From assembly GCA_000091205.1 (NCBI GenBank), contig AP006502.2: 64,000 bases of DNA; one strand, given 5' to 3'. The notes under the pieces are model-generated. The model saw only the letters and a program-made list of their open reading frames with translations, was not told the origin of the DNA and made no database searches. This stretch comes from Cyanidioschyzon merolae. Taxonomy: Eukaryota. Position numbers and translations under genes: made by a program. Shown in pieces: positions 1 through 43,695 of the stretch (its first letter is position 1; every line of letters starts with the position of its first letter).

Positions 1-1076
1 ACGCACCAGCTTGCTCGTGTGGTCTTGAAAATACCAGGATGCAGTTCCAAAATATGTCCGATGACGCGACCTGCCATCTTCCACCGAAATTGCAACGATA
101 GCGTTCCGGGGACTCCGCAATCGGTATAAAGCACAGGGACGTCGGTTTGGTTTCTCAGTCGATGGGAACTTCTTCGGACGAAACGATTGAAGCGTTTGGG
201 GGGTTTCGCGGAGCAGGCAGCCTATTCAATGTAGGATCGAATTGGAAGAGAACGAGAACATCAGCATCTGTTCGAGCTGCAGTAGATACATTTGGCGGCT
301 TCTGCTACGCTCGTAGAGAGGGCCCATGCAAGAGCACAAACCACTCTGTCGAACCATAGAAGACTTTTCGCCTGACGTCTAGCAGCGTCCTTCGATTCGA
401 TCGCGCGTCATTTCACCGTTTTCCTTGCGTTCGAGCTTTTTCGGATTCCTTTGGGGTTGAGCTGCATTTCATTCCTTCGTACGCTCCGTGTTTTAACCCA
501 TTCGAATGGGTTTTTCTATTGTGAAACGTAATGATTGCTCCACTGGGAGAATCGCGAAGCGTTCGGCATACGGTGACACACCAGAGACACATTTCATCTT
601 TTTTGTGCAAGTACTTCTTCCTCCAAGAATATCCTCATCTAAGGACACACAGACCTGTGTTCATTTTAGAAAACTTAAAGGATGAGCTGGGGCCTGCACT
701 TCAGAATGTCGTGATGGAGAGGCGGTAGCGGGGCGCATCGTCGATAGAATACCACGGTGAGCTGGGAGAGCACCAATTGACACACAGGATACGAGTTCGA
801 GGACTTGTCGCATTGGTGAGTACCGCCAGCGGCAAGAAACGCTTCGAGTTCGTGCACCAAGACTCTAACGCCGCCATCCATATCAGAAGGTATACAGTGC
901 TGAAGACGATACCAACAGAGCGGACGGAATGCAACCTTGAGGGGCAGCCTCCCAGGCTCGAAAAGTGCAATCAGAAGCTGAAACTGATAGCAGGGGGCCG
1001 GTCGAAGAAGGCTGAAAAGTGTCTCCACGTCGGTATTGCTTTACTGTATGGTCGCGGAATGTTCTCGCTCCTCTGA
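1..1076 (+). pseudogene. TnpB/Fanzor-like (IS605 OrfB-family RuvC fold) copy 1. 3' two-thirds only: 5' end lies outside the window and in-frame stops interrupt it (three same-frame ORF pieces 147-359, 531-728, 777-1076)
   Basis: All three pieces lie in frame 0. 'VFILENLKDELG' resembles the RuvC-II ivlEdLn motif. 'FEFVHQDSNAAIHIRR' resembles RuvC-III DxNAAxNI. Collinear protein similarity to copy 2 (42919-43695) includes the conserved C-terminal 'GGRSKK..LHVG'. TAG at 726-728 is in frame. Confidence 0.5.
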
Positions 1077-3343
1077 ACGAGTGAAGTCCACCGACTCGAG
1101 CAACCATAGTTCAGCTGCAGTGTCTTTCCATCCGAATCAACAATAGCCATTACATGCTTTTTCTGCGACTGTTGCCTTTTCCTCTCGCTTGTCTCCGTTA
1201 TCTAATACGTGCGTTCCTGTCCCTCCAGCGTTGTTTTCAGTAGTCGAAAAGTGTTCGTGACAGTGTTCAAGTTCCGATTTCGCCGCTTCGGGCCGTTTTC
1301 CATGCATTTCATCCACAGGGAGTAGTTGCAGACTACGCTTCGCTTGCCATTCGCATCTTGTTTGTTTACAGATTCGACGCGCCCTTCGCAGCGGTGACAC
1401 ATAGTAACGATCATGAATGGGCACATGTGCCCATCAGCTCCCCTTACGTGTGCCGTCCTGTGGCGCATGAAGGCTTGTTTTCGCGTCCGGCTCATGCCTG
1501 TGACGTGTAAAGAGGGGTCCCAGGAATACCCTCCGCCGTTTTTGCGCCCGCTCTAGTACCGAAGGACGACGGGCTTCACCTGCGCGATATCCTCGGAGTG
1601 CATAATCCCCGCCACACGAGCGAGCACACGCTACTCCACTCGATAGAGGATTTGTGGAACGCGATGTCGTTCATGATGATGAAAAAGGCACCGGAAGGAT
1701 AATCCATGCCGGAGACAACGAAAAAGTCAGATCCGTTGATGCGCCCTTCGCGCTACGCGGTAGCAAGCGTTCCACGCGAAGCGACCGATGGAATGACGAA
1801 GATGCGAGTCCCAGGCCCTTTTCCGCACAAACAGAAGAGACGATTGCCCCTGGGGGCATGTCTGGGACGGCGTATCTTGCGGGCACGGAATACGGGGCTC
1901 CGACGGCCACAAAGAGAAGCGGAGCACCCTGTCAAACGGAGCCCCGTGTTTGACGTCACAAGTTCAGTGAACTTTTAGCATGGGCGTGTCAACAGGTCAT
2001 CAAAGGACAAAGTCGATTGATTCTTGCTCGCCAATTCAGGGGCGCGATATGCTACGGCCTCGAGTTGCGTCCAAGCAGAACTATCGAATAGTTGAAGAAT
2101 GCGTGATTTGCGCGTACTCGACGTAAAGAAACGAAAGGTTTCGTTGCTTGTCCATATCCACTGAAGACTGGTATCGGTTGCTTCACGGACGCTTGTTCGT
2201 TGGCGTCACGAACCATCTCGATTCCACTTGCAGTAACGTATTCCAGCGGGAACGCGTCGAGGGGGCCTCTCCTATACGAGAATCGAGGATCCTAAAACTA
2301 AGTATGTATCCTAAAACCGCAACTGTTGCACTTCTAATGTCGATGTCGTACATCTGCAAGCAAGTTCCGGAACATCGAATGACAGGAACAAAGCGAGCAA
2401 TTCAGCATTCCATATCTATCTGACACCAGCATTGCGGACATATGCGCGGCGGCAGGCCGCCCCAGCGTCTCGTGGCCAATCTCTCATGCTTTGGGGTAAC
2501 TGCAAGGTTACCGCCATTTCGAAAAAACCTATGATCAAGGCGGACGCTGTTACCATCAAGCTACCGAGCGCCCCGGATTGCTCTCGATGGGTCCTCTGTT
2601 GAGAATCTGGACTTGGCGGCACCAGCACGATACTATCCAGCTTCTTTGGTGGCGTTCAGAAATGACGCTTCAGAGACCCAGCGCCCTTTCGATAACGGTA
2701 GCCTGCCAAAGCCCGCACGCCTCGGTTCGCGAAACCATACTGCGTCCGTTCAGGCATCGCCGGCGCTCATTCTATCAGTCTAGCTCGTGCGACAACGGCG
2801 AGATAACCTCTAATGAGGGCCGTTTCTCCACCGCCCGTAAAGCATCAGCGTGTCGTTGTATTCGTAGACGGCACGGCGGGCGATCGTGGTGCGCTCTCTG
2901 AGTGACGCTCCGCGATAGCAGCAGGGGCGACGCTGGTCAAGCTTAGGTCGCAATTTGACTTGCGTTTCGATGATCGCCTTGGTCGTTGTTCAGTGCCGAG
3001 TGAGTGCTATTTGTATGTGCGAAGTAGCGAATGTGCGCTATCCCGCAGATGCTCATGACCTAGATTGATAGAGGAATATGGCATGTGCGCGCAAGCGCAG
3101 CGCTACGGCATCTCGCTGGCGGCGGCAAAGACGACTCACTCGCTCATCGCATGCCCAGCATACACCCTACTAGATACGCTCCGGTTCCGTACACATTTTG
3201 ACCACAAATCTGCGCGGTGTCACGGCTCCGTTCACGGCCTTTGTATGCCACGTCGACTAACTGAAAGCACAGCGGATCCTAGGTCGGAACAATAGATCCT
3301 TCATCTGCGAGCCATTGCCGTATCGATCACGTCATCAGATCGC

Positions 3344-4468
3344 TCAGGTTCGTGGTGATGCATGCCCCGTAGAGGCCGCGCTTTTGCCTACCGTGCGAAG
3401 CAGTCGAGTGTTGCTGTCGACATCGGCGGGCATCTCGACGTCACTGGGCTCACTTTCAGATCCGCTAAGACGCGACCCTGACCACGGGACCGATGTCGTT
3501 CCCTTGCTCTGAGACTGACTCTCCGATACGGCTTCCCGTGTCCACCAGAAAGACGCGAGTCTTCTTCTCAACCACGGATACACGCCGAAACACCACTCAG
3601 GATCATGCAGACGTTTCCAGTGCTCGGTCTGCAATTTTGAGAGATGCGCTGCAACCCAGCCCAACTGTTTCGTGCCGTGCCTAATAATTTTTCGGGACGC
3701 CCAGTTTATGAGCGATGCTGGAATAAACTTGATACGCGGATCGAATACACCCACCAGACGGACCCGAGTGCGACCCCGGGATACCGGATGCAGCTCGAAA
3801 CACGCTCGCGCTTCGACGGTGACGGAGCGTTGGTCTGCCACACGCTCGCGCATCCGTTCCGCTGCACGCCATGCCGCACCGTCAGCGGGGCGCACAGAGC
3901 GAATCACAATGTAAACGGACTGGCTGGGTTCATCGAGCGCATCAATGCCTCGCCCTACCAGGTAGATGGTGCGGTCCGCGAAGGGCCACGGCGCATAGAA
4001 GCGTGCGTAAACCGCACGTTGCACCCGTCCACTCGGAACCAGAAGTTTTATATCCCTCACATACCAAAAAAGCTGCCCGAAGAGATCCGGTTCAGCCAGT
4101 ACACAACAGAGGTTCTCGAGCGGTGCACTCAACTCCGCTGTGACGTGGTACTTGTGTAGGACACTGCCGGGAATCCTACGATATCGTACTATCATTCGTT
4201 TTGTTTGCACTGCTATTGAATAGGCGGGATCGCTTTCGTCATTTAAATCTTGGAGAAAAAGCGATAAGTCATCGGTTTCCCGGAAAATCTCCTCAATGAG
4301 GGGTCCGAAGCTCGCAGCACGCGCCGCAGTGATACCCTGCTGCACTAGAACTCGACGCGCAGCAAAGAGCTGCTCCTCCTCGTACAGCGCTCTGGCATCG
4401 GCTATCGCTGGGTTATCCCAGGCATCAAAATATATGCTATCTTCCGGGCCCTCCTCGAGTCTTTGCAT
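3344..4468 (-). CDS. START/Bet v1-like lipid-binding domain protein
   Basis: 374-aa ORF with ATG start. Central region 'AVYARFYAPWPFADRTIYLVGRG...VIRSV' and 'VFDPRIKFIPASLINWASRKII' match the START-domain pattern (pWPlspRDfv ... DpkGxiPxwlvN). Confidence 0.5.
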   Translation of the reverse strand: MQRLEEGPEDSIYFDAWDNPAIADARALYEEEQLFAARRVLVQQGITAARAASFGPLIEEIFRETDDLSLFLQDLNDESDPAYSIAVQTKRMIVRYRRIPGSVLHKYHVTAELSAPLENLCCVLAEPDLFGQLFWYVRDIKLLVPSGRVQRAVYARFYAPWPFADRTIYLVGRGIDALDEPSQSVYIVIRSVRPADGAAWRAAERMRERVADQRSVTVEARACFELHPVSRGRTRVRLVGVFDPRIKFIPASLINWASRKIIRHGTKQLGWVAAHLSKLQTEHWKRLHDPEWCFGVYPWLRRRLASFWWTREAVSESQSQSKGTTSVPWSGSRLSGSESEPSDVEMPADVDSNTRLLRTVGKSAASTGHASPRT

Positions 4469-4639
4469 GGACGAAGCACGTTAGCAGAGCCATACGGGCG
4501 GTATTCGCCATACGCAAACCCAGACGCTCTGAGGCCCACGCGCCTGCTGCGCTTCGTCGGCAATCGCGTCGATGATTTTTTTTCCGATGACAAAACATGT
4601 ACATTAATTCATGGATTCCGGATTGTGAGAGGGATATTG

Positions 4640-5235
4640 GCTTTCGGGAAAGCGTCCATCATGCTGCTGCACCCTACCACCGAGTTCCGTCAACTGTTCT
4701 CAGATGTACTGGTCGTTTTCTATGTTCCTCTGTTCGCAGAGTATCTGCTTTGAGCACCTGCCTTGGCGCCGACACCGGTGGAGCAGATGTATCACGGAGA
4801 GAGAACGGCTTTGCGATGCCACGGAGGGCGTCGGCTCGAGACATGATTCATTCAACACGGGGTCGGAGTACATAATTATTCCGGGAGCCTGCCAGCTGCG
4901 CAGACAGAAGTACTGCCTGCGGCAGTGCGAAGCGATTGACTTGGAGTCCACTGCGACCAGGGCGACGCCCAAACGCAGCATATCGGCTCCTGGTCACTGA
5001 ATAAACTGCGTTTCGAACGAGCTTCTCAGATCCCTTCACGGCACTAGGCACTGGGAAGAGCATGGAGCACTGGTCTGACAGACTCGTCCGGCTCGCTGGA
5101 CCTCTCGCCTAGATGATAAACTTTCGACAATGCGGAAAGCTTTCCCGCATTTCAACGCTTACCCTAGACAGGGAACGGGATAGTTATCTCGTTGCTAGTT
5201 AGAGGCTCGTTTTTGTTCCTATAAATGAATACAGG
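4640..5235 (+). repeat. Degenerate ~0.5-kb dispersed repeat, copy A (partner at 40790-41265). Contains an intact 98-aa Cys/His-rich ORF at 4704-5000
   Basis: Collinear DNA similarity to 40921-41265 (clear), with weaker similarity out to 40790. Shared 21-mer gactcgtccggctcgctggac sits at about 5085 and 41106. A 123-nt in-frame indel separates the copies. Confidence 0.6.
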
Positions 5236-6594
5236 ATAAACTAGTACCGACTCACGGGCACCGCGCAACCTTTTTTGGCCAACCCTATGCTTTAGATTTC
5301 AGTTTATGCGCACATGCTTCGAGACTGAGAGGGTGCCCCGCGAAGTGCGATCGCTTTAGCTCCTCGGATCTCGTCTTCAGCACCGCACATCGACTTATAT
5401 TGGTAGCAACGTTGAAGTCTCGATTCAGGAACTCCATGCATTAACTGATGCGGGTTGAACTCATCCATACAGGGTTTGCTAGAATTTGTGCCTTCTATGC
5501 AATTTGGTGCTCTGTCAGCTCGCCGTACTCTTATTTAGCCGAGGCGCTCCGCTGTCTTCTCCCTATCTCGACATTATGAAGTGAACACCTCAGCCCGTAC
5601 CGTAGAATATTAAAATGAACGCACTCCTTCATGCCCTTAGGTAGCGACAGTCCCCGAGCGAGAAGGACTTGCGGAAAGAGAAAGCAGGGGAATGGTGATT
5701 TACCATGTTGTCCAATCAAGGCCGTCGCCAGACCTGCAATGAAAACGTCTTCAATGATTCAACGGAATGGTTGGCGCTGTAGTTTGAGCCTTCTCTACGA
5801 GCCAAACTGAGGCTGCCAGATGAATCCACTGTAGCTAGAATAGATGAAGATGTCGTCATTCTCTACGTGCTCGATCGTACATACAACGGGCACTCTGCTC
5901 CCCGAATACCCATATACACTCCGATCCTTTCATCCGAAGCAAGTCTCATCGACTGAGAGAAAACAAACCGACTTCTCCGTCTTCACATCGACTGCAACGT
6001 TCCAGGAACGCTGTCGTTGCGATTCCGGTGCTAGTTGGCCGTGTGTGCATTAGGACGCTTTGTTTGTGTCTGTACATTAGTGTTTTCGGGACCAAACGAA
6101 CGACCCGTTGTGAAACATTGACACCCATGTCGGCTACGATCGTCGCATTTGCTTTTTATTACGTGCTCTATAAATCGTGTTCAACCGCCGACCGCAAGCA
6201 CGCCTAGGGGGTGGCAGTTTCTGATGCAGAGCGCATCTGTTTTCTTTCTATGATCCTGAAGCACCTGCGTTCTATTGTATGACCGACTTGAATGAGGAAT
6301 GCAGTCCTCCTTGCACTGTTCAGTATAGAATATATATCCTATAGGCAATTCGTCTACAGTCTATGCTGGGAATGGTGCTATGATTTCAATCCCCTGCTGT
6401 AAACTGCAGCCGGAGCAGTGCAAAACTGAGTAGAAAGCATACAGGAAATCAGCGCGCTTGGCGCGAACACGAGCGTGCACATCCGTGGCATGCACCCGCG
6501 GATCAGCAGCCAAGGGCACGCAGGCGTCTGATGAGGTTTCCCCCATTTCCCGACGGGATACACCAGAGCGTCTTCCGCGCAAACAGGCCCCTAC

Positions 6595-6657
6595 GTGTGC
6601 TTTCTTGTGCGTGTGCTTTCTTGTGCGTGTACGTGCGTGTGCTTTCTTGTGTGTGCT
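6595..6657. repeat. TG-rich microsatellite, three tandem copies of a ~16-bp unit gtgtgctttcttgtgc
   Basis: Direct reading of 6595-6657. ORFs on both strands across it (e.g. 6361-6678) are low-complexity artefacts. Confidence 0.8.
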
Positions 6658-6699
6658 GCTCAGCCAGCGACCTTTCACACACGCAGTCTCGTTTACTGC

Positions 6700-10130: not shown

Positions 10131-10210
10131 ATCACCTTAATCAGAAGGTGAATTAAGCTGAATTGAACTGCTCGCTGCGAATAGAGACCTGCTCCACACC
10201 CGGAAATCGA

Positions 10211-13707: not shown

Positions 13708-13773
13708 GTCTCTGTCTCCATAGCGGACGTGCTCGAACAGTACCGGAAGATGTCGTGACCGCAACGGAAATCT

Positions 13774-20419: not shown

Positions 20420-21416
20420 TCAGAGGGTATAGCCGGTTTCGTTTTGCACTTGTGGGGAAGGCATGAGCGTACGTTTGCAGTGTTTTCAGCACGGATGGTG
20501 CTCGACGTGCCACAACGAGCGCGCCTGCGCGTTGCGTTGGGCTGCTTGTGCATCCCTTGTCTCGATTGGTGATGAGCGCTTAGATATAGCTACGCCTTTC
20601 AGAACCGTTTTGAACGGGTGCCATTCAAGTCAAGCGAAACAGGAGGACCCTTGATGTCTTCGAGGTGTCGGCAGCTGAGACGCGACATTTCGGCGAAAGC
20701 GCCTTCCATGTTCTTGACCCTCCTGCCTCGCGGGGCGGCACATTTCGTCTGCATAACTGCTGCTCATACTGGAGGCAGTCGTGTCGCTAGCAGCGCCCAA
20801 TATGCCCACATGCTTTCTGAAGGTGTGACATGTCCCAAAAACATCACTGCACGCTTGAATGAGCTGCTTTACAGCTCTCTAGTGTTCGTAAACGTTTCCT
20901 CCCAAACAGAGACGCCTAGTCGATGTCGAGAGTCCACCTGTATCCGTGTTCGATGAACATGAAAACTGAAATGCAAGCTCTGTTCCTGTTTTGCAATTAT
21001 TATCGAACGTTCTCGTTCATAGACAGCATCGAGACGACAAGTGCTGCAATACGGAATAACGGATTCACGCGTCGTTCCAGGATTTTCGGTCGTCTGTTTG
21101 ACTTGACTCCTTCGCCGCTTCGCCGCTGGATATCGTAACGTCACCGGATTTAAAACGATTCGCGACGCCTTCGAATGCGGTTTTATAAAATAACCAATAC
21201 GATTGTCAAATTCGTACGTGGAATCAACCAGTCCGCTCCTTTCGTTACGCGCAGCACGCGTGACTTCAGCGTGCCTCAAGTCTTCGTTTTTCCTATTTCA
21301 AGGCAATTCGTGGGCCCAGCAATGTGTATCTCTGGAATGGGGAGACAAGAAACGTGATTTCAAATCTTGACGACTTGTTCGCAAGCTCGCACCAAATCTT
21401 CGTTGAGCTTGTCATG

Positions 21417-21983
21417 TCAAAGAATAAATATATTCCGATCGAGAGACAAACTACTGCTCTCTATACATCCATCGATGGGACGGCATTCGACAGCATCAAA
21501 TACACCTCTCCGGGGATGCGCTTCCTGCGTCTCTCGTCTCTTCGGTTTGGATGGGAAAGGCTTTTGGACTCGGAATTCAGTCAGTCCAGCGATCGTTTCA
21601 CACGGAGTCGTTGTCACCGTTTTGCACGAGGAGAGCGTAGACAAATGCAAGTTTCTCATCTTATTTTCCAGGCAAATTTTCTCTTTCTGTATTTCTCTCA
21701 TCATGGACAACATTATTTTCCACGAATCATTTTTTGAATGCAATAGCGTACGCTTCCGTGTGCAGCGGACAGAGGACTCGCCCAGTATATCGTCCATGAG
21801 ATGTCTGGAATCATACGGTACAGGATCGGGCCCGAAAACGGAGAAAGACATCGAGAAGAGCCCTCTCTGCCCAGCATGGATGTGCCCCGAGCGATGAAGC
21901 ATGCGTTCACGCGCCACAGGGCTTGGCTTAGAAGTGTATATTTGACGGACGTATGCGCACACTTGAACAGAGCCGAAAGTCAC
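21417..21983 (-). CDS. ORFan paralog family member A. Lacks ATG at the family start position (track start is GTG), so possibly a pseudogene or with an upstream exon
   Basis: Protein-level collinearity with 29814-30455 and 49972-50547: hydrophobic N-terminus, 'RCTRKRTLLHSKNDSW', 'KPKRRE'. Many synonymous differences at DNA level. Confidence 0.45.
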   Translation of the reverse strand: MTFGSVQVCAYVRQIYTSKPSPVARERMLHRSGHIHAGQRGLFSMSFSVFGPDPVPYDSRHLMDDILGESSVRCTRKRTLLHSKNDSWKIMLSMMREIQKEKICLENKMRNLHLSTLSSCKTVTTTPCETIAGLTEFRVQKPFPSKPKRRETQEAHPRRGVFDAVECRPIDGCIESSSLSLDRNIFIL

Positions 21984-22542
21984 CGCTGCGAGGCGCGTAC
22001 CGATACTGGGTACAAAGACTATGATGATAGCGAGCCAAGCGTAGATGGCAACTCCCGTCTGTGCTTGGTAGGTGTCGCAAACAGCCAGACGCTGCCAAAT
22101 CGGGAATTCAATGCTGCCATCGCTACACGTCTACTGCTGCCATCGTAGCTCGGCGGAAGGGAGAGACCCCGCGTATTTAAAGCGTGGAATAAGACAGTGG
22201 AAATGAAAGCAATCGTGGAAGAAGTCGGCAAAGGCTGGTGTTGCTGATACAGGAAAAGACCCAGAGTTCAGAGCATACGGTGGAGCTAGGGGACCTGTCC
22301 CATTTTCATCTGACATGGTGTGTCTATCGGTGCGCGTGCACATTCCGCTCTAACGAAGCCGTGCATTCGTCTGGTAAAATAGGTCGGGCGTAATCCGTCA
22401 GACTTACGTCCCGTCTATAAGAGAGCAACGTTTCACTCTCGCGACTGTAATGAAGTGTTAAGAGTGGCTTTCGGCTGTCTCCGGGGCTTCTGGAGGTTTT
22501 ATTTCCGGACTCGTTGCAGCGTTTTTTCCCCTGGCCGCTTTC

Positions 22543-23193: not shown

Positions 23194-26100
23194 CACGTGC
23201 ATCTGATGTCGCAGCTCCGAAGCGGACCGCATGACCGCTGCGGAACGAAGTCTCGAAGCAGCGTTCTTCGTGGATCATGTTCGGCGGGCAAGCGGATTGC
23301 CCAACATGAATCCTGTCCACAATCAATATAAATAACAGGTTCGGAAAGATGACATGCTCCAGGTATCATCCCAAGTAACCGGCTTTGTAGCCCGTTAGTG
23401 CAGTGTGCTCGCGGATGATTGTGCGCTGGCGTATGGAATGCTGGAACACCATGATCGTCCACTCTTCCGCCGAGAAAGGCGTTATCGCTGTAAATATACG
23501 GAGCTCTGGCTTTGCTGGATTGCTGAAATATACCACACCAGTGCTTTAACCCAGGGAAGCATGAAATTCCATAACTGACATTGTCTGGATGTTTCATCGA
23601 AAGTCTGCAGCGTTTCAGCAAAATGCCCGCACAGAGTGCTCGACAACTTGCTCGACAGAAAGCCGCCAGACGCTCCGAAATTAGTCCTCATTTGCTGGAT
23701 GTTGATCCAGGCTTTCGGGTCTCGGCGACGAACGCTTTTAAGCGCGCATTGCTCCACGTGGAATCGCACAAGAGCAAGCCGCTCACTGTCCATGGCCTCG
23801 CCTGATGACGTTCGTTCAGCATACAATACTTAATCTCATGCGACTGCATCTGTTGCACGCTCTTGCTCTCTCCCTGTTTCAGCGTGCAGTGATGCGCGCA
23901 ATGCATGAATGTCATCCCGAATGCATCGATAGGAATCGTGTAACATCTATTCCTGCACTCGTCGAGCACGCTCTTCCGCGTAGCCGGACTGCAGAGCATG
24001 CGCGTTACGGCTTGTGTACAGCAATAGACTACCATCAAAGGACGCTACTTGCGGGCCCTTTCCTTCTCCAACCCATTGAACATGTTTGCGAACACCAGCA
24101 TCCTGCCTCTGTCCAACCGAAACCGGCGGCAGCGCCAGGGCAGTCTCAGGTACCGCCGATGACCGTCTGCGTAAGCCATTTGGACGCTCATGTAGTATCT
24201 GCTTGAATCTTATGACTGGGCGCTTTCTGCTCAATGCAGTACTCAAAGCGTCAAAACGGGTCAAATTGCCGCCATTCCGCTTGATAGTATGCCTCGCTGC
24301 GTACGTCACGCCAGGCTCTCGATCATACGGATCCCTGGGAAATTTGAGCAGCAGAACCTGCTTTCCGTCCGTGTCTCTGGCTCCATCCCTTTGATAACGA
24401 GGTACAGCGACGGCCATGACGTTCGTAGACCAGGGATCCGAAGCCATCACGAAGTCTGTCTCATCATCTGTGGTGAACGGATGACAGTGGGTCTTTTTGC
24501 ACGAACTGGGCGAAGGATTTCACAAAGTGCATGTAGATCGATATTCCGCCGATCTCCACCGTCCATGCAAACCGCTTTCGATTCCTTCGAAGTACATGAG
24601 AAACCTTGAACGAGCGCCGCCAATGCGCTTCGCGAGGTGTTTCAAACGCTTCATTCTTGCGTGCAGAGACCAGCCGTTTTTCGATGAGAAGGCTACCTAG
24701 TACACTCGAGAAATGTCTGCGGTAAATCATGGACAAAGACAGAACACAGCTGGACCACATCAAATACTAGCTTGACGAGGCGACGGCACTCGCATCCGCG
24801 GACGACATCTGCTATGTCCTGGAGGGTTCTGTTGTGGATAGCGCCGTAGCGCATGCTCCAAAACAGACAGGGATCAGTTTTCAAGCATCCTTTGGATTCC
24901 AATTCCGCCATTCCGAGACCTGTACCAATACAATCAGCCCTGACGAGCAGAGGCGACGGTTGCGCTTGATGCTCAAGCTCGTCAACCCCACGAGCTCAGC
25001 ATTCGCATGCATTGACTCCTCAGGAATCCCCACGATCAGCACCCACTTTTCTGAGCCAGAACGATGAGGGTATCGGTGGGAAAACGTCCACTGGGTTCAT
25101 CTCACCAAGCGCTCGAGACTGACCGGCATGCACTTTCTGAGTTTGGTTCAATACCTTTTTGGCATATGTGCTGTGGATCCCCCGATCGCCCAGATGGCAC
25201 TGCGACGCATCAGGGTATTCTTGCACACGTCTGTGCAAATGCCGGATGCCACGATGCGGCCGTACTGCATCTTCTGTACCGAATATCAGTTCTTTTGTCG
25301 CATCGGGTTATGATCGAAAAGCTCTAGAGGAAAGTAGACAGCTGGCAGCCGTGCGTACGGAACTCCTTAGGCAGCTGGTTGACGAGGTGTATCAACTGGA
25401 AGGAAGCTTGGCGAAAATCCATCGTATTAGAAGCTACTCGATCTTGAACGGCGTCCTGCAACTTACAGTTTCATGGATGCGAATGACTCGCCTACTGGGC
25501 CAAGAACGTAGAAATGGCTTTTGAAAACAGAGACGACGCTTTCAGCTGGACTGGACCCGGCAGAATCGGCTGGCACAATGAGCAGATCAGCGAGAATCTC
25601 AGTTGCTTATTTCCTGACCGCTATTGATTGATGCAAAGCGATGTTGTCTAAGTACGGGATAGAGCAATATGAGAAGAAGAAGCCACGAAGAGAGCGGTGA
25701 CACGACGCATAAGGGGTTTTGAGCGATCCTCTCTGATTGTAGGACTGGAGGCGACCATGCGATAGCGTCGTCGCTGGGGCTAATGTTCTCGGCCTTGTCA
25801 CTACTCTCGTCTGTACGGATGGTGGTTCGCCCCTTTTCCAGTACCCATATACAGGTCTAATGCTTCACTCGAATAAATTCACGTCGAGTGCGATGTGCAC
25901 CAGCCCCCTTCTGATGTAAGCGTTCGCTCTTCCGTAGGGAATCGATATGGTGTTTTTCGACGCGCTACGGGTTCACATATAAACGTGCTTTTCTTGTCCA
26001 TCCGTGTCTTTTCGTCGCTGTTCAAATCAGCGATGCGAGAACTTCACATCCCGAACTGGAATTTATTCGTATTTCGTAGAGAACGCATGGGATGAAATGG

Positions 26101-28839: not shown

Positions 28840-29813
28840 ACTTTACGTTTGTGGCGGAAGTTTCCCTGATCACGGCCCTTTTCGGGATGCAGGACGTCGC
28901 AGGTGTCGCGCAAGTTCGAACGTCGATTCGCGCACGAGTTGAACCGCCACGGGCGCCGGGTTACGGGCAGCCGACCTCCGCCTGCGTCAAGCCGGCGCCC
29001 GCAAGTCCATGGCGCAATCGTTCTCTTCTAGATTGCCGCACGGGGGGGGTCGTTGAACAGATTAGGCCTGAGCACTGAGGGCATACGCTAGACTAGATTG
29101 GGAGATGCCGAAAATCTGCGCAGGGAGTGGTGATCGGGCCCAGGATATCCAGCAGCGCCAGTGCGTTCGAGGGAGTGCATCGCTAGCGGAGCTATGCAGC
29201 GGCTTCGATGCTATTCGCTTTCGATCGTATGCACCCCGCAAGACGCGGAGAATTCGTCAGAGACACGTTCAGCGTGCGCGCCGCTGGTGAGCCGCTTCAG
29301 AGGCGGGTCCACGAGCGCACTACCTGTGTCTACTGGCTTGGGCTGTACCACAGGTCAGATAAAAGCGCAACATTGAACTGCTCAATCTGCTCCTGGCTGT
29401 CGAATTTTCCCGAAATTTTCTAAAAGCACACCCTCCACATTCCAAGTGCAGCAAGGTCTTACGGGTTCATGTATAGTTCCAGCATGCTCTGTCGTCATTT
29501 CAAAGGAACTCCTTCGCTGCTTGCCGCTGGAGTCCGTTTCCTCGCCGAAATCAAGATGATTTGGAACGTCCCTGAACAAGGGTATGTAACATCAGCGATA
29601 TCATCACAAGTTCACACGTTGAAGCTTCGACTCCTCTTTCCGTACTTCCAGCATGCCCATATCACGCATTCTTCATGCGTTTGCTCTTTCTGTTTTAAGG
29701 TAACTTGCGTGCGCAGCAATGCGCGAGGCTTGCTTGATGCGGCGAAAAGCTCGACGGCATTCGTTGACGACTTGTTCACGAGCTCTTGCCTAGGGTTCGC
29801 TGAACTTTTCAAC

Positions 29814-30455
29814 TCAAATAATCGGTTTCGTTCCAGAGTCAAATCCTCCCTGCTTTCTGTCCAGAGATGAAAGCGGATTCGACAGCAGCGGCATGGTACC
29901 TCTCACGTGATATGCTCCTGGTAGCTCCCGTCTCTTCAGTTTGCATGGAATGAGATCTTTGACTCCGACTTGAGTCATAGCAGTGATCGCTTTCTGTGAA
30001 GCATCCGTCATCGCGTTGTACGAAGAAAATCTAGAAGAATCGAAATTTCTCGACTTGTTCTGCAGTTGGGATTTCCCTCCGGATGCTCGGTTCATCGCGG
30101 GCAACATTGCGTTCCACGAATCCCTGATTGAATGGAACAGCGTGCGCTCGCGCGTGCACCAGATAGAGTACTCGTCGAGGGAATCCTCCAGAAGAAACCC
30201 GTGATCATGTAGAGCGGCATCGTGTGCGGAAACGGAGGAGAGCATCGAAAAGAGCCTTCTGTTCTCATGAAGGTCATGTACTGAGCTTTGCAGCGAGCAT
30301 TCATGCGCCACAGGCGAGTGTTCAGAGCTGGAGGTGGTGTCGCGGGCATATGAGAACACCTGACCACAGCCATGTGCCACCGTTGTGAGGCGCGTACCGA
30401 GGCTGTACACAAACAATATGAAACTGGAGAGCGACGCTTCGATCGCAGCTCCCAT
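29814..30455 (-). CDS. ORFan paralog family member B, the only copy with an ATG at the family start. Hydrophobic N-terminus (possible signal peptide or anchor)
   Basis: 'MGAAIEASLSSFILFVYSLGTRL..GQVF', 'DEYSIWCTRERTLFHSIRDSWNAMLPAM', 'KLKRRE'. ATG verified at 30453-30455. Confidence 0.5.
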   Translation of the reverse strand: MGAAIEASLSSFILFVYSLGTRLTTVAHGCGQVFSYARDTTSSSEHSPVAHECSLQSSVHDLHENRRLFSMLSSVSAHDAALHDHGFLLEDSLDEYSIWCTRERTLFHSIRDSWNAMLPAMNRASGGKSQLQNKSRNFDSSRFSSYNAMTDASQKAITAMTQVGVKDLIPCKLKRRELPGAYHVRGTMPLLSNPLSSLDRKQGGFDSGTKPII

Positions 30456-31506
30456 CTCTGAATGAAATGCGCCAACAAGTACCTGACGCTGCGAAATCGG
30501 GACATGAATGCCGCTATCAACATCGCTCGAATGCCGGCAACGGAACTATAGGTCCTGGGGAGACCGGCGTATTTCAAACTGGAGATAAGACACGGAAAAG
30601 TAACCAGTCTCAGAAGAAGCTCCCACGGTCTAATGTTGATTACAATTGTAAGAGTCCTAAACTTTACAGTGCAAGCGCGAGATAGCTGAGTGAACCCCTT
30701 TATTTTAGTCTGACATGCGTCTAGAGCCCGCACCAGAAATCGCTGTCCATACTCAGCGATTCAGTTCGGCAGCGGGTAAGCATCGCGAGTGTATCGAGGC
30801 GGTAAGTATTCTGTTTATCGAAAGGGCATGTACTTTGAACACTTGCTGTCTCGAATACAGTACGTCAGCATCATAGACAGCTTTCTCGTCTGCACCGTGC
30901 CGGCAACGTTTCCGAGCATCCCATTCAGATAGCACGGATCACCATATGAGCGGATGTCTTAGCACGACGTATAGCATCGGTTCATACACTATTATCGATT
31001 AGTACGAGAAACCATGCCACAGCGTCGCCGATTTTCCCGCCAGCGATGCTGCACGCACGGCGGAATGCGCACTGGTCGCATCCGATCTGGCTTCGAGAGT
31101 TTTTCAGCAGGTGCGATCAGCAGCAGCAACAGCAGCAGCCGATACTGTGCCCAGAGGCCTTTGACAGCTATTACAGACCCTTCTCTTGCGCTCGGGAAGG
31201 ATCGAGAACTTAATTCCGGAGATCAAGAGAAACGCTGGCGTCCATGGTCGCCCATTCGCCCGGAGCGGTGACAGCTAGCTGTCCCTCGAGATCGAGTAAG
31301 AGGCAGCATTCCTCAGCGAGGTGCTTGCTCGACCAGCATATCCGGGCATTGGACTTCAGTTCCCAGCGGATTCAAAGTCTTGTGCACTGCATGTCATTCT
31401 CCCGCACAGAGCCGAATTGGCGCGGCGTCAAGGCACCGGATTATGTCCTACGCATGCCCTGAAGCATGTATACGTGGACACGGCGCTGAAAAGAGCACCA
31501 AAGTAC

Positions 31507-36951: not shown

Positions 36952-37353
36952 ATGGGTCGCGTTCGTACCAAGACGGTTAAAAAGTCAGCGCGCGTTATCA
37001 TCGAGAAGTATTACTCGAGGCTATCCGCGAATGATTTTCACACAAACAAGCGCGTGTGCGACGAGGTCGCCATCCTGCCCTCGAAAAGGATGCGGAACAA
37101 GGTAGCTGGCTTCATCACCCATTTGATGAAAAGAATCCAACGGGGTCCAGTGCGAGGAATCTCACTCAAGCTTCAAGAAGAGGAGCGAGAGCGGCGCATG
37201 GACTTTGTGCCCGACGTGAGCGCCGTGAACACGGAAACCATTGAGGTCGACCCGGACACGAAAGCAATGCTTCGGTCCATTGGGCTTGGCTCTATGTCTG
37301 GTGTTGTCGTGATCCAGCCAGGCGAGCGGCGCCCGTACCATACTAGGAAGTGA
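36952..37353 (+). CDS. RPS17: 40S ribosomal protein S17 (eS17)
   Basis: '[39 protein letters not shown]' is the canonical eS17 N-terminus. ATG at 36952. Confidence 0.85.
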
Positions 37354-38060
37354 TGTGCCCATAGATAGTACTGGCGCGCCAACCAAACCAACCAGCACTT
37401 CATCGGGACAGCGAGCGGTACCAGGCGAGTGCGTCAGTATGTGACGCACCAGGCACTAGATGCACCCCGCTTGGTTGCACGCGGACGTTATTCGCCACGG
37501 TAAGTAGAGTTTGGGTTGGTATGCGTGCATGGCACAGTGTTTTGCATATTTGGTCCAGCGTGCACTTTCGTTGTGTGCCCATGGCGATCTCTCAGCTAGC
37601 GACCGAGTTCGTCATAAATACTCTTGATGCGCATCAACCGCTTTCCATTCCCCTGCACCAATCATCCGAACTCGCCTTGCAGTCAGCGATCAACACCAAG
37701 CTCTTCAGGATTGGTGCGCGCTGCTCCAGAAACATTCGCGTACAGGCATGCTGAAATATTATGAGTCCGTCGTTTCACCCCAATTTCTCATGCATGACTT
37801 TATCAGAATTTGATGCTCATTATAAACGAGGCCGGGAATATCGTAACTTTTTGTCTCTCCTCGAGACTTTTGATATGTGAGGCTGGAGAGCCTTTTTCGC
37901 TCTGGGACATGTTTTTCATTTTCTGTCACGCGACGAAAAAGTGTAGGTCGTTGACTCCTCTCATTCTGGCCTACAGCAGCGCCAGAATAACGCAGCACCC
38001 GTCTTCGTTGTCGTCACAATTCTATGTGGTGCCTCGACATGGCCAGCCTGCCCTGCCCCC

Positions 38061-38222
38061 GCATCTGACACGCTTGCAGTGCAGCACTTTGTGGACCCGA
38101 GCAAGATACGACCTCCGTTCTTTTACTTTCGTGGCTTCCCCTGCATCTGACACACTTGCAGTGCAGCACTTTGTGGACCCGAGCAAGATACGACCTCCTT
38201 TCTTTTACTTTCGTCGCTTCAT
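38061..38222. repeat. Tandem duplication, 2 x ~82 bp (about 95% identical)
   Basis: Direct reading: gcatctgacac(g/a)cttgcagtgcagcactttgtggacccgagcaagatacgacctcc(g/t)ttcttttactttcgt(g/c)gcttc repeated. Confidence 0.75.
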
Positions 38223-39076
38223 TGGCGATGACCCCGTCGTCATTCCATTCAAGTTCTTGAGGCGAATTCCGCAACACGAGCACGTCCACGACATCCGGGA
38301 TTCAGTGATGCCCACCACATCCACATCTAGAATTTCCCTCAACTTCTGTTTGATCGCTCTCCATGCACCGAGCGTACGACGGGATATCGGACGCTTAACT
38401 CCCTCACCCTAGTTTCCGAACTCACTCCATGACCGTCTTTTTGCCACTTGGCACAAGAAGGAGGTGCAGACCCCCTGGATTGCTTTCGGTTCGAAGAAAA
38501 CGTAAATAAAGGTCCTATCCAGGAACGGAAGCGCGTTTGTGGCCTCGTCTGACGTCCAATCTTTGAAAATCTCGTACATACGTGCTCTCAGTGTCTATAA
38601 AAACGGAAAGAAACAAGCATGTGAACTGGGTCAATATTCGCAAGATAGAATCTTAAGCATGTGGAAGTTCGCAAGCGCGTTCGCTACGCCTTGCAGCAAG
38701 TTGGCCTGGAAGACTCAACAAGCGAGACGACGGATTGCATTCTTTCTCGATTACGATCTCGTATGAAGGAGTTCTGCTACAATTTGAGAATGTGAACTTT
38801 TCCTTGGGTTACTTGTGCCCGTTTGTCGTCGTTTGTCTCCCCGGTGGAGTCGGGCGGCACATTTCTTCTGTATACCAGAGGATGTGTTGCACGTGTCCCG
38901 ACGGAATCGTTTTTTCCAGATGAAACGCACCTCCAAACGCTAATCTGGTCGAGAGACCCCAAGATTCCAGATAAGTTTTTCGTTGTTGTAGAGGACGTTT
39001 TCCAGTTTTCAATGCGTGGTATTTGATGCGTCTTGCGTCGACGCGTTTGCGTACATCACGCCGATGGAGTGCATGT

Positions 39077-40470
39077 CTATAGACCGACGTGCAGACGTCT
39101 CCCCGTCTTTTTGGACCAGCCACCTACTACTGGTTTCAACTCCTTCCCGTACAGTTCGACCCTGAGGGGTTGCCCCATAAAGCTGGATCGCGTCAGTCCC
39201 AGGGGTCTTCTTTGCAGCACCGCATATCAACTGACATTGATGGCGGCTTTGAAGTCTCGGTTCACAAATTCCATGCGTTTCTTGCTGGCGCCGCTGCTTG
39301 TACTCACCAGTGTAAATCATCCTCGAAGTCGTGGCGTCAGTGCTACACCAGTATCGTCGTCGCCGTCCCGTCGGGCAAACACCATTACTGGACTATCCCC
39401 CTACTTCGTCTTCGCCACTTGCTCTTTTCCGCTCGATGGTCGGCGAAAAGGGGAATTTTTCGTTTCCTTTCCGGGAGCCGGCGATGATGGCCCTTCAGGA
39501 TCCCCGACTTTCATATCCATACCTTTTCCTTGGGGTTTATCTCTTCAAATGAACGCACTTCGAACGCGTCTGCTATAAACCGCGAATAAGCATTTGGTGA
39601 CGCACATCTGGATGTGAATCACAATCGAGATGAAATCCATAGCATTGAACTCCTGTGCCATCGGAGCACCGCGAATGTCTGGCACGCGAGGCGCCCAGGG
39701 GACTGAGGTCCGTCCGCCCTACACCAGGGTTGCTGACCCGAACGCTGCGTACCGGAACCGCGAAGGAGCTTGCCAACTCCTTAGTCAATAGTTTGGTTGG
39801 GTTGTATTGGCGTACGCCATATTCGCCTGACTGCGTTGCAAGGTAGCGTAACTGCTTTTGAAACGGAGCTAGCCCTGGTCCATGGTTCGAACGTTGCGGG
39901 CGTGATGCGCGGCCCCATGCCCCGGAGGTTTGCCATTGAGGGCTTCAAGTTCTCGCTCAATTTGATCGTACCGTTTTGCGCTGTTGTGTTCTTTGGTTCC
40001 AGCGATCACTCCTGGCTCGAGCAAGCTGTCGAGCGGTGGCGCTACGTCCAGTATCCCGTCAACGAAGAGTCAACGCTGACCTCCGCTGAAATCACAAGAA
40101 GGGTGTTTAAACAGCCGAAAACCGGGGCAGCTGAGGACCATCGAAAGTGAGCGAGTCTCGCGAAAGGGCGCCGCCCTTGCGCCTTCCGGAAGACACCCGT
40201 CTGGTCACTCCCGATGAGGTTCTGCAATGTTGCTGACGATCTCAACAGCAGGATGCGTGGATGGAAGCGTGGGCTTGCATGCTCGTCGATACCTGAAATC
40301 GAAGAATACCCAGGCCTGCGCAGATAACAGCATCGGTTCAGAAGCCAAAGTCGCAGTCTCCAAAAGCAGATAAGAAATGACCTCGGAACGGCCGGCTGTC
40401 AGACACAGGCACCAGCCACCGCATATCGAAGAAGCTCGCTGGCCTCTATTAGACATCGTCATCTTACCCG
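39077..40470 (-). pseudogene. TnpB/Fanzor-like copy 3, degenerate (at least two in-frame stops, frame changes). 5' extent uncertain
   Basis: Minus-strand translation gives 'TLVSTSSGASKKRMEFVNRDFKAAINVS*' (RuvC-III-like), then 'QPLRVELYGKELKPVVGGWSKKTGRRLHVGL*' collinear with copy 2's C-terminus. Upstream piece 'ARLAHFRWSSAAPVFGCLNTL' parallels copy 2 'ARLRKNFYCGKQRAFANFFNQL'. Confidence 0.5.
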
Positions 40471-40789
40471 AACGCTCACATCATTCCTTGTGAAAAAGCC
40501 ATGGACAACGTAACGCCGAGATCGAGGCCTCTGTGCTGCATAATGCTTGCAACGAGCACGTTGGTAATGTCTGGTGTCAGCGATTTCTCCCAAGCGCCAC
40601 AAGAGATAAACGATTGTATCTCAAGAGCTCACATATAGGGAACGGCTTGCCTCGTTCAGCGCTCGCTTCGAAATATTTTTAGCCCTGTCTGCGAGGCGAC
40701 AACGCGTATCGTAATGCAGATTTTTCTCTTCGACAGAACCTTGGCACAACCTAGCTATCCCCGATCGCAGCGCCTGTTCGCAGCGCACA

Positions 40790-41265
40790 GGGAAGCATCA
40801 ATCGTTCCACCTGCTTCCAAATTCCACAAGCCGTGCTTTCCCCCGAAGGAACCAGTAATTTTTACGCCATATCGTGCGCCGAGTGCATGCTGTGAACACC
40901 AGCCGTAGCGCCTAAACCGCTGGAGCAGGTGCATCACGGAGACGGAACTGCTCAGGCGCACCACTGAATGCGGTGCAACCAGGGCCACCAGCAGACGCTG
41001 CCTAAGCATCATTAGTCCCGGAATAAACCGCTTTGAAGACGAGTAGAGCAGGTCTCGCAACAGCACCTGCCACTGGGGGGATGGGTATGAAGCACGAGCC
41101 TGGGAGACTCGTCCGGCTCGCTGGACATTCCCTCGAGAATGTAAAGTTTCAGCAATACGGAAACCTTTCCCCTTTTTGACGTTTATCGTAAATGGGGAAC
41201 GAAATTGTTATATCGTTGCAATTAAGTCGTGAGTCTCTGTTCTTTTTCCTATAGTGCGATCGATA
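40790..41265 (+). repeat. Degenerate ~0.5-kb dispersed repeat, copy B (partner at 4640-5235). Lies about 250 bp upstream of the first candidate 5' exon of Fanzor-like copy 2
   Basis: Collinear DNA similarity with copy A. Reading frame equivalent to A's 98-aa ORF is broken by a TAG (40906-40908, W to stop) and a 123-nt deletion. Confidence 0.6.
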
Positions 41266-42166
41266 GGCGCACCTGGGATATCTGGCAGTCTCGAGACACG
41301 ACGCTCACGTCACCGTTGAAGGGGAACGCGATCCTGATCGTTATTATGTTGCTCTAATGTACGAGTAGTAGTTACTTTATAATCGTACCAAATTATAGTT
41401 TTTCAGGTCTATTGTGTTTCAGCCCTCAGGTTAGTATACTCAAGTGTTTTTTCGCGGTTTATGACAGAAGCGTTCAAAAAGCGTTCTTGTTCAAGAAACT
41501 AGAAAAGCAAAGTTATGGAAGAGGAAATGGAGGAGCATGAGGGCACAGCGTCGCCGGCTGCCAGAAAAAAACGGAAAGCATGGCGGAGCAAAGAGGAACA
41601 GGAAAAGACGAAGACGCGGAGGCCGGAGGCCCTACGTCGAAGGCAGCGATAAAGACGACAGTACGACGAGACGGCGGTAAAAGCCTGTCTTCTTACGCAT
41701 ATCAAGGATCCGTACAGGAGAAACCTGCGAGATGCCATCAGAAACCGAGTCGATTCGTACTCCAGGAGTGTTCGTAACGCCTCTTCAGGACTAATGCATT
41801 TGGTGAAGGAGATGTATCGCGACGTGGTGGATTCGAAACCTTCGAGATTACGGAGGAATTTTTCAACATGACCTTTATTCGCCACCTGATGGTTGGCAGA
41901 GGGGAAGCGTCGAAGAAAATGAGCGAGTGGAAGCCCTCCACAAAAAATTACGCCAAATGCCGCGTCGACGCTACTCTATACAAGGTTGATGCGGATATTT
42001 ACACCTACGGTGCGATGAAGAACCATTTGACCATGAACCTCAAACGCTTCATGATACGCGCCGTGTTTGCGCTCTACCCGGGCCTGTCTCGTAGAGGAAT
42101 ATGGACCATCGCCAATTGCATCACAAACGATAGTAAGAATGAACGGGGATCGAATTCGTCGACAAG

Positions 42167-43695
42167 ATGACATCACACGGGAGAAAGAATAAAGATTCCT
42201 TCATCCGCGCGGCTATTCAAGAGCACCGTTCGGTCTTGGGGCTTGTCAACCCAGCAGAAAAGGTATCAGATATGAAAAAAAGATGGAGAAAGATGTTATC
42301 TCCTCATGCTGCGCTATTTCGTGTTTTTGACCGACGCCTCGAACGCAAAACAGAGATGGAGGTAGGTGCGGGACACAAAAGCAGAGTTGGAGCAACGGAA
42401 GGCTACCCTTCAGGCGAAGCGCTTCAACGTCTTTCGGTTATGCAACATCAAGTCGCACTTTGTGAATATCGACTGCAGAGTCGTTCATGGCATCATGAAG
42501 GATATCTGAACGGTGCTCGGTGTAAGCAGGGAGGAGTTCACCGGGGAAAACCGGGAGACGTACTGGAAGCATATCTTCGGCTTCAAACGTGTCAAAACGA
42601 GCAAGCAAAAGTATGCATAGGCATCAGCGAAAGCGATGGAGTAGCCACATGTGTACACTATCAGCGCCTTAGGGTGAATCGTCCTGTTCCGTCTTCAGTA
42701 TCGCCAGTGGCGAAGCATGAGGGAAACAAGAAGGCGGGTCCTACGACGCAGGAGGTGCGGGAGCATGACTTTGTGGTAGGCGCGAACCCCGGAAACACGA
42801 ATATCATGACCATCACAGTACCCAAGCTTGCGGAAGATGGTATTGAAGGCAACCTATGTCAAAAAGACACGCGTTTGTAAGGTTCTAAAGATAGAGACAT
42901 TACTGAGAATCGGGAATAATGAATGCAAGAAAGAAAATTGAGACATGGAATGCACGAGTGAGAGAGCACCTGGAAGCTATGAGCGAGGTGACGAGCCGAG
43001 GAACGGACTTTGGAGCTTTTCGGGAGTTTATGGATGTTCGTGTTGCCCATTGGGATGCACTGTGGGAGGAGTATACCAAGCCCCGGTGGGCTCGTCTGCG
43101 AAAGAATTTCTATTGTGGGAAGCAGCGGGCGTTCGCGAATTTTTTCAATCAGTTGAGTGCCCCGAAGGGGGACGAGAGTCAGAGGCTCGTAGTAGCGTAC
43201 AGAGCAGGGCGCTGGAAGATTCAAAAAGGGTGTACGCCAGCTCCAACGACGAGGGTGTACAAGGAGTGCGCACGTCGTTTCGTTACAATACCGATAGATG
43301 AGTTTCGAACATCGTATACACACCATGAGCTGGGTTGTACACTTCAGAGAGTGGAGATGCAAAAGTGCCAGAGGAGCCCTGAGGATATAGCAAAGTACGG
43401 AGCGCTGACGGAAGAGCAAATGGAAAGGAAGGCGAAAGTTCGAGGGCTACTCGCATCAGTGAATACAACGAACGGGAAGAAACGGATGGAATTCGTGAAC
43501 CGAGACTTTCATACCCCTATCAATATCAGGAGATGTGCAGTGCTGGAGAAAAGACCTCCAGAGTTGACGAGAGCCAACTTTGTTCGACAACCTCTCGAAG
43601 TCGATTTATATGAGAAGAAGTTGGAAGCAGTAGTAGGTGGCCGGTCGAGAAAAACGGGGAGGCGTCTGCACGTCAATTGGCGACTTTTTGTCTAG
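42167..43695 (+). CDS. TnpB/Fanzor-like (IS605 OrfB-family RuvC fold) copy 2. Two exons (42167-42876, 42930-43695) joined across a 53-nt intron. Possible further 5' exons (Lys/Arg-rich NLS-like ORF at 41515-41652; ORF 41868-42170) not resolved
   Basis: 'FVVGANPGNTNIMTIT' fits RuvC-I vGiDlGixNlaT with D to N. 'ARLRKNFYCGKQRAFANFFNQL' is the conserved inter-motif region. 'PIDEFRTSYTHHELGC' is the TS motif with zinc-finger Cys replaced. 'GKKRMEFVNRDFHTPINIRR' is RuvC-III-like with D retained. Splice joins ...KDTRL|KKIETW... in frame. Confidence 0.55.
42877..42929 (+). other. Putative 53-nt spliceosomal intron (GTAAGG...AG) inside Fanzor-like copy 2
   Basis: The stop TAA at 42878-80 lies inside a consensus donor GTAAGG at 42877-82. 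AG at 42928-29 restores the downstream frame (phase 2). The joined protein is collinear with TnpB architecture. Confidence 0.45.

Follow-up and report, generated by a model that had tools for sequence, protein, structure and literature searches.

The DNA analysed here is a 64,000-nucleotide stretch of the Cyanidioschyzon merolae 10D genome (contig AP006502.2; hereafter the window), and it contains at least six decayed insertions of Fanzor1 elements, designated copies A to F, which are related to the TnpB/Fanzor-type RuvC nucleases. Every one of them is a fossil, and we infer that the element from which they descend encoded an RNA-guided nuclease; we put the probability of this overall reading at about 0.93. 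An earlier note on this DNA, made from the letters and a list of open reading frames (ORFs), had described three copies, one of them intact-looking and spliced. Searches with family proteins, with the consensus of the published family CMe-1A and with a profile of diverse relatives (A2, described below) found at least six, so that three was too low a count. The mobility followed by decay that the earlier note had proposed is upheld. The useful product of the present work is thus a corrected annotation of the window, in which all copies are pseudogenes, none is spliced and the number is six or more.

Copy E belongs to the published Fanzor1 family CMe-1A

Fanzor1 proteins were shown in 2023 to act as RNA-guided nucleases. 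Fanzor1 and Fanzor2 had been defined, and the Fanzors named, by Bao and Jurka (2013, Mobile DNA 4:12; PMC3627910), whose table gives a single Fanzor1 family for C. merolae, CMe-1A. Its consensus is 3169 bp long and represents about 150 copies, each ∼80% identical to it; the family lacks terminal inverted repeats (TIRs), its target site duplications were undetermined and no transposase was reported (PMC3627910). The encoded protein, CMe-1, has 734 amino acids (aa) in one exon, and the first 635 bp of the consensus are equal to another element, the 635-bp TE-N2_CMe (PMC3627910). We took the CMe-1A consensus DNA and the CMe-1 protein from the supplements of that paper. Copy E, the second copy of the earlier note, matches the consensus over nearly its full length: positions 40733-40972 correspond to consensus 6-245 by nhmmer (62-240 by blastn, where the match is weaker), and 40973-43754 to consensus 366-3169, with 84.0% identity over 2810 columns by blastn and 2093.8 bits by nhmmer. 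Its features are as follows.

40733..43754, + strand: copy E, near full-length CMe-1A pseudogene (blastn, nhmmer)
41515..43695, +: remnant of the 734-aa Fanzor1 ORF, 85.9% identical in DNA to the CMe-1A ORF by codon-aware alignment; tblastn pieces in three frames
41566..41577, +: KKRK, basic motif resembling a nuclear localization signal (NLS), in the N-terminal region (consensus 'PAAGKKRKTVPSPEE'), a motif reading only
42779..42793, +: RuvC-I remnant GANPG (family GADPG), with the Asp codon at 42785-42787 now Asn
42874..42918, +: supposed intron, homologous to consensus 'LLRFSRARYYRESGI', with a 1-nt deletion at 42874
42919..43695, +: open 258-aa C-terminal ORF, consensus aa 476-734, 85% identical to CMe-1
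43189-43215, +: canonical RuvC-II position, inert, VVAYRAGRW
43294-43314, +: catalytic Glu motif, IDEFRTS
43498-43527, +: RuvC-III, NRDFHTPINI
43696..43754, +: 3' untranslated end with an imperfect hairpin (consensus GCCGCCA..TGGCGGC) and terminal 'TTTTTCTTTTGAAAGGCG', a candidate part of a guide RNA scaffold

The family was also reconstructed independently of the published consensus. Searching a collection of 5.8 billion proteins with the 258-aa ORF of copy E returned 258 relatives, with E values down to 3.7e-169; among the 120 matches listed, identities range from 58 to 98%, and all are metagenome gene calls. These relatives have no confirmed Pfam family, the few precomputed PF26935.1 labels not being reproduced by our own Pfam scan. 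Metagenome contigs hold 343 related stretches. The resemblance of the copies to one another and to this large family far exceeds what chance would give. When window positions 40500-44500 were compared with the loci from five look-ups and with 80 metagenome matches, the repeat homology was found to span from ∼41013 or ∼41267 to ∼43754-43765, which is where homology between copy E and the other copies ends. A consensus was built with MAFFT from 46 full-length metagenome copies plus the window copy. It contains one uninterrupted ORF of ∼759 codons, or 734 aa after removal of one optional acidic 25-aa repeat unit, and this ORF fills the element, no second ORF being present in the consensus. The deduced protein is 91.3% identical to published CMe-1 across all 734 aa. 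Longer relatives give the undamaged family sequence as '...DNDFVVGADPGNTNIITIAAPK...RLLRFSRARYYRESGIMNARKKIETWN...RLVVAYGAGRW...RFVTIPVDEFRTSYTHHELGC...VRGLLALVSTTNDGKKRMEFVNRDFNAAINIRRC...'.

Given the match of copy E to CMe-1A and the 91.3% protein identity, the feature is CMe-1A, found again in the genome from which it was first described, and was already known. The published family and that of the window are one family from one genome: the copies are of like age, TIRs are lacking, the protein is encoded by one exon and the 5' module TE-N2_CMe is present in both. There is no essential difference, the position of the 5' end being the one discrepancy. The rarity and novelty implied in the earlier note thus do not hold, since the same family had been reported from the same genome (PMC3627910). 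As a discovery the finding carries little weight, because family, host, copy number and Fanzor1 assignment were all published in 2013 (PMC3627910).

Copy E is a pseudogene and not a spliced gene

Codon-aware alignment of copy E to the CMe-1A ORF revealed nine single-base frameshifts, an 18-nt deletion and a 3-nt deletion. Additionally, there are five in-frame stops, at 41650, 42507, 42886, 42892 and 42904. The earlier note had instead joined two ORFs, 42167-42880 and 42919-43695, into an intact Fanzor gene with a short intron, and this reading does draw on a real feature of the DNA, namely two long ORFs on the same strand with 38 nt between them. The family evidence runs the other way. CMe-1 and the independent consensus are both single open ORFs, from which it follows that the family is intron-less. 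The 38-nt gap is consensus coding sequence residue for residue: it aligns codon for codon with family 'RLLRFSRARYYRESGIM', interrupted by TAA at 42886, TAG at 42892 and TGA at 42904 and preceded by the 1-nt deletion. Upstream of the gap lie eight further frameshifts and two further stops, the RuvC-I Asp has become Asn, and the middle of the 237-aa ORF that would form the first exon (about 42366-42611) is out of the family frame. We consider a spliced, intact copy E highly improbable. The candidate intron at 42881-42918 was rejected as homologous coding sequence carrying three stop codons, and with it both the splicing of this copy and its description as the one intact-looking copy are refuted.

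The family is homologous to Fanzor1 nucleases

When 1.84 billion protein representatives were searched with a profile built from 30 family members, 1329 relatives were recovered, many of them 600-740 aa long. An alignment of 59 diverse sequences among these (A2) was used as a profile against the Protein Data Bank (PDB), where it matched the Fanzor1 chains of Parasitella (PpFz, 9cf0, E=1.8e-18), Spizellomyces (SpuFz, 8gkh, 2.1e-11) and Guillardia (GtFz, 9cer, 2.3e-5). In these alignments all three catalytic motifs (RuvC-I, Glu, RuvC-III) are collinear. Two of the catalytic residues never vary within A2, namely Asp of RuvC-I and Glu of 'DEFRT' (D126 and E298 of P0002), while the third, Asp of 'NRD' (D367), hardly varies. 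P0002, a homologue from metagenome data, has 85% identity to CMe-1 aa 306-734. Its AlphaFold2 model, computed with A2 as the alignment, has a mean confidence (pLDDT) of 81.7 and a predicted template modelling (TM) score of 0.77; an AlphaFold run with a shallow alignment (30 sequences, 57-82% identical to the first) gave a pLDDT of 37, and that model was discarded. When the P0002 model was compared with the PDB by Foldseek, the first seven matches were Fanzor1 chains (E=1e-12 to 1e-8, TM 0.48-0.61), SpuFz being the best (E=9.9e-13, TM 0.61) and PpFz and GtFz following. Weaker matches were to Cas12o, Cas12b, CasPhi, Cas12i and Cas12f.

Over the C-terminal 60% that was modelled (aa 306-734), the family is thus homologous to SpuFz1 (8GKH, 9CEU-9CEZ), PpFz1 (9CF0) and GtFz1 (9CER). 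The catalytic residues are collinear with theirs, namely Asp in RuvC-I, Glu within D-E-[FY]-x-T-S and Asp in RuvC-III. Sequence identity in the structural alignments is only 12-20% and, unlike SpuFz1, the CMe-1 clade is without the four cysteines that form the TNB zinc finger. Prokaryotic TnpB (OrfB of IS200/IS605 or IS607 elements, e.g. ISDra2) and Cas12 share the RuvC fold and the order of catalytic motifs. Compared with TnpB, the family has a rearranged RuvC-II Glu, a much larger protein with an NLS-like N-terminus and a eukaryotic nucleus as host; the combination of a TnpA (Y1 or serine recombinase) with IS200/IS605-type ends is absent, no TnpA lying beside the CMe-1 ORF. Curated thresholds for prokaryotic TnpB (Pfam OrfB_IS605 and Cas12f1-like_TNB, NCBIfam IS200/IS605) were not reached by window ORFs, close homologues or the consensus, and 10 of the 59 A2 members match Pfam Cas12f1-like_TNB. 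The sequences are therefore eukaryotic homologues of TnpB/Fanzor-type RuvC nucleases, and the claim of such homologues with collinear motifs is borne out by the A2 profile and the P0002 model. Of the checks that the earlier note had proposed, the profile search matched Fanzor1 chains, and structure prediction found a Fanzor1/Cas12 fold, having been run on a close homologue rather than on the proposed spliced 42167-43695 product. Neither result that it had named as refuting, a failure of profile and structure searches or a lack of collinearity with TnpB, was seen.

Fanzors have a rearranged RuvC-II, with an inert residue at the canonical position and an alternative Glu in use (PMC10530073). The family consensus has the catalytic motifs GADPG, VVAYGAGRW, VDEFRTS and NRDFNAAINI. 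The RuvC-I residue is the Asp of 'GADPG', Gly occupies the canonical Glu position in VVAYGAGRW, the catalytic Glu lies in 'VDEFRTS' and the RuvC-III Asp in 'NRDFNAAINI'. In the window copies this triad is broken: E carries the Asp-to-Asn change, A, B and D are without RuvC-I, and C and F are decayed. A basic 'KKRK' or 'KKQK' stretch falls within the first 45 residues and was read from the motif alone; acquisition of NLSs by Fanzors has been reported (PMC10530073). Directly before RuvC-I we also observed acidic 25-aa repeat units ('..ATQEVEDNDFVVDAAKDEE.KKEA..'), with one unit in copy E (42709-42785) and three to five in some metagenome copies.

By homology with characterised Fanzor1, the active ancestor would have been an RNA-guided endonuclease cutting double-stranded DNA in dependence on a target-adjacent motif (TAM). 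The ancestral element was ∼2.5-3.2 kb long, without terminal inverted repeats, and encoded one intron-less 734-aa protein combining the basic NLS-like N-terminus with a RuvC domain whose catalytic site is rearranged in the Fanzor manner. RNA guidance of Fanzors and a Fanzor RNA (fRNA) at the 3' end have been described (PMC10530073), and structure 8gkh shows SpuFz1 bound to omega RNA and its target DNA. The guide RNA of the ancestor would have been transcribed across the 3' part of the ORF and the last ∼60 nt of the element and on into the adjoining DNA. Most of the 66 distinct 3' ends share a common 3' untranslated region (UTR) of ∼60 nt, in which hairpins could form at the stop codon (AGAC..GTCT), at GCCGCCA..TGGCGGC and, a small one, at the terminus. 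By analogy, RNA-guided cleavage of DNA is the most likely activity of the ancestor.

Several results weigh against this picture. Neither Pfam nor NCBIfam gave a significant hit when scanned directly with the window ORFs, with close homologues or with the consensus, the best Pfam match of the consensus being Cas12f1-like_TNB with E=0.66 and 10.6 bits against a cut-off of 26.3, and phmmer found no match for the consensus in the PDB. The link to Fanzor1 accordingly depends on profile or structure, and the modelled protein is a metagenome homologue, not a window copy. We attribute the negative direct scans to divergence and not to a lack of homology. The CxxC...CxxC of the TNB zinc finger is missing from the CMe-1 consensus ('TSYTHHELGC', 'RGLLALVSTT'): the stretch between the Glu motif and RuvC-III reads 'DEFRTSYTHHELGCTLQRVEMEKCQRS...VRGLLALVSTT' and has no CxxC pairs, and the wider A2 clade keeps only 'GLLWC'. 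On the RNA side, RNAalifold returned 0 pairs for the 3' ends, and the hand-picked 3' helices show no compensatory changes; an exhaustive helix scan of the 3' ends gave G-U-rich candidates only. The cysteine-less TNB domain in a Fanzor1 clade of a thermoacidophile is itself a lead.

The 258-aa ORF shows no sign of purifying selection

The earlier note had offered domestication as an alternative to decay. On such a reading, the 258-aa ORF of copy E (42919-43695) would be a truncated protein under selection, or the 3' third would be kept for an RNA function. Its 258 codons are free of stops and frameshifts, whereas the 476 codons before them hold 14 disabling lesions; the last ∼770 nt are slightly closer in DNA to the consensus (identity 0.88-0.90 versus 0.82-0.85); and at the orthologous metagenome locus, L004, the ORF is 98% conserved. 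The comparison with L004 nevertheless fits neutrality, as the ORF has diverged by 1.03% and the dead upstream part by 1.0%. The ORF differences comprise five non-synonymous and three synonymous changes, a tiny sample. This equal divergence and the 5:3 ratio give no sign of purifying selection. The fragment is also without RuvC-I and so could not be a nuclease, and its exact sequence is absent from a protein collection that has the NCBI C. merolae 10D proteins for the other genes of this window. Lesion density along 44 copies was not used here, since the loci had been picked by searching with the C-terminal 425 aa and aligning them introduced spurious stops. Judged on these sequences, there is no evidence for domestication of the ORF, which we regard as very unlikely.

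Other Fanzor-derived copies in the window

The remaining copies and their motifs are listed below.

678..1035, +: copy A, old 3' fragment (consensus 2733-3093, aa 612-729), one in-frame stop, nhmmer E=4.3e-41
5245..5603, −: copy B, old 3' fragment (consensus 2732-3093), several stops
5396-5425, −: RuvC-III of copy B, 'NRDFNVATNI'
about 23698-25503, −: copy C, near full-length diverged Fanzor1-like pseudogene, ∼30% aa identity to CMe-1, nhmmer E=6.5e-18, A2 positions 34-567
24421-24441, −: RuvC-I remnant of copy C, 'SDPWSTN' (tblastn)
23910-23936, −: 'IPIDAFGMT' of copy C (tblastn)
39082..39643, −: copy D, internally deleted CMe-1A derivative of ∼560 bp with in-frame stops
39233-39262, −: RuvC-III of copy D, 'NRDFKAAINV'
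about 55177-57029, +: copy F, near full-length diverged Fanzor1-like pseudogene with many stops, nhmmer E=1.5e-18, A2 positions 47-591
56944-56973, +: RuvC-III remnant of copy F, 'NGNSNASVNI'

Copy A, the first copy of the earlier note (1-1076), is homologous to the family consensus at 678-1035, and the rest of that extent is not. It has 68.5% identity to CMe-1A by blastn and 51-53% aa identity by tblastn, and its RuvC-III reads 'HQDSNAAIHI'. The motif ILENL had been taken for RuvC-II; it falls slightly beyond the stretch homologous to the family and is not aligned to the motif with the catalytic Glu, so this assignment fails. By our reading of the alignments, copies A and B appear to be without the 'DEFRTS' segment that holds the catalytic Glu. 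They also share extra sequence, 73-368 with 5743-6039 at 72.8% identity, 73-368 being common to copy B only. Because A and B cover the same CMe-1A interval and share this extra sequence, they represent a distinct old subfamily and not random truncations.

In copy D, the third copy of the earlier note (39077-40470), positions 39397-39643 (consensus 785-1017) are joined to 39082-39334 (consensus 2844-3093). Nothing in 39644-40470 matches the family by nhmmer. As strings, all the motifs quoted in the earlier note are present as given: ILENL at 663-677 (+), DSNAAIHI at 861-884 (+), GANPG, NRDFHTPINIRR at 43498-43533 (+) and NRDFKAAINV.

Copy F aligns with ∼22-36% aa identity over segments found by tblastn. 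Copies A, B, D and E are in or close to the CMe-1A family. The diverged copies C and F, only ∼30% identical to CMe-1 in protein, are more ancient relatives and probably stem from older families not tabulated in 2013. Each copy in the window is either interrupted by stops, frameshifts or both, or is only a piece of the element. All of them are pseudogenes, unable to produce the 734-aa protein and without nuclease function.

A separate repeat, ∼65% identical between copies, occurs four times, at 21367-22224 (+), 29712-30619 (+), 49886-50643 (−) and 62848-63583 (+). Its consensus has DDE_3-like motifs, 'IDETAFD..RGYAP.G' and 'CLIMDNIVFH' (Pfam DDE_3 E=0.0089). The C-terminal part that comes next is TnpB/Fanzor-like and retains CxxC..CxxC as well as 'NRDMNAAITI' (family profile E=5.7e-6; Cas12f1-like_TNB E=0.034). 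The repeat resembles a Mariner/IS630-type element that has suffered an internal deletion and bears a Fanzor of another kind. The order of DDE_3-like remnants and TnpB/Fanzor-like C-terminus is that of PUl-1 of Pythium ultimum, a Fanzor1 associated with Mariner/Tc1 (PMC3627910); unlike PUl-1, the repeat gives weak matches and is short (∼0.9 kb) and decayed, and it is separate from the CMe-1A family. The four-copy repeat and copies C and F are missing from the 2013 table for C. merolae (PMC3627910), and such additional diverged Fanzor-like families, together with sharper element ends, are leads arising from this work.

Element ends and TE-N2_CMe

Two stretches of the window correspond to the 5' module of CMe-1A.

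4585..5221, +: TE-N2_CMe copy beside copy B, 80.7% identical to CMe-1A 1-633 by blastn, nhmmer E=5.3e-127
46946..47148, +: TE-N2_CMe or CMe-1A 5' fragment, consensus 24-230, nhmmer E=5.6e-20

Most metagenome copies start at a hairpin, GCGCTC-GGT-GAGCGC, located at ∼41267 in the window and ∼655 in the consensus, and TE-N2 lies just upstream of this hairpin in either orientation. TE-N2_CMe copies (4585-5221 and those at loci L031, L034 and L048) adjoin the Fanzor 5' hairpin or the 3' end, again in either orientation. At junctions with consensus position 1, a T-rich run comes before ('..TTTTTC/CGATGAC', also 'GCG..TTTTTC/CGATGAC', the slash marking the junction). On the 3' side, the flank after 'GAAAGGCG' often begins with TTTGT or TTCGG, and 5' flanks are T-rich. 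The 635-bp 5' module of published CMe-1A may be a separate, often adjacent element, and the pattern of TE-N2 and T-rich junctions suggests either such a separate element or a shared target preference. More speculatively, the CMe-1 lineage may be an active or recently active RNA-guided nuclease that does without a four-cysteine TNB, accompanied by at least two extra Fanzor lineages (that of copies C and F, and the DDE_3-associated one with CxxC...CxxC), with the T-rich 5' motif as its target or TAM; we hold this combination to be possible and rather doubtful.

Host locus and neighbouring genes

Seven window ORFs match C. merolae 10D nuclear proteins letter for letter (BAM83335 to BAM83356, including CYME_CMT398C, on a 1,621,617-bp record), and from the CMx naming convention we take the window to be part of chromosome 20. 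GC content is 48-59%, and the long ORFs are intron-less and far apart. Neighbouring genes are ordinary ones: a CbbY-like HAD phosphatase, a pyridoxal phosphate-dependent enzyme of Cys/Met metabolism, a pseudouridine synthase, MetAP1, which is of the eukaryotic type, and a subunit of NAD-dependent isocitrate dehydrogenase. No RNA genes were found in the 64 kb by Rfam at gathering thresholds, nor tRNA genes by ARAGORN.

This setting bears on the possibility that the copies are bacterial TnpB, brought in by contamination or by a recent horizontal transfer. These proteins have their prokaryotic homologue in TnpB, with which they share the RuvC-III motif 'NRDxNAAxNI'. Against this, the flanking genes are identical to C. 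merolae 10D nuclear proteins, and hundreds of copies occur in metagenome contigs alongside Cyanidioschyzon-like neighbours. Additionally, the top sequence and structure matches are eukaryotic Fanzor1 and not TnpB, and the protein has 734 aa and an NLS-like N-terminus. A bacterial origin of this kind is effectively refuted, and the eukaryotic setting recognised in the earlier note, with the copies sitting among ordinary nuclear genes, is upheld.

Lastly, two other repeats were observed in the window. Positions 53745-54314 and 62454-63024 form a direct duplication of 571 bp that is 97.9% identical and much more recent than the copies of the transposon. Immediately upstream of copy D, at 38053-38220, lies a tandem pair of ∼82-bp units with 94% identity.

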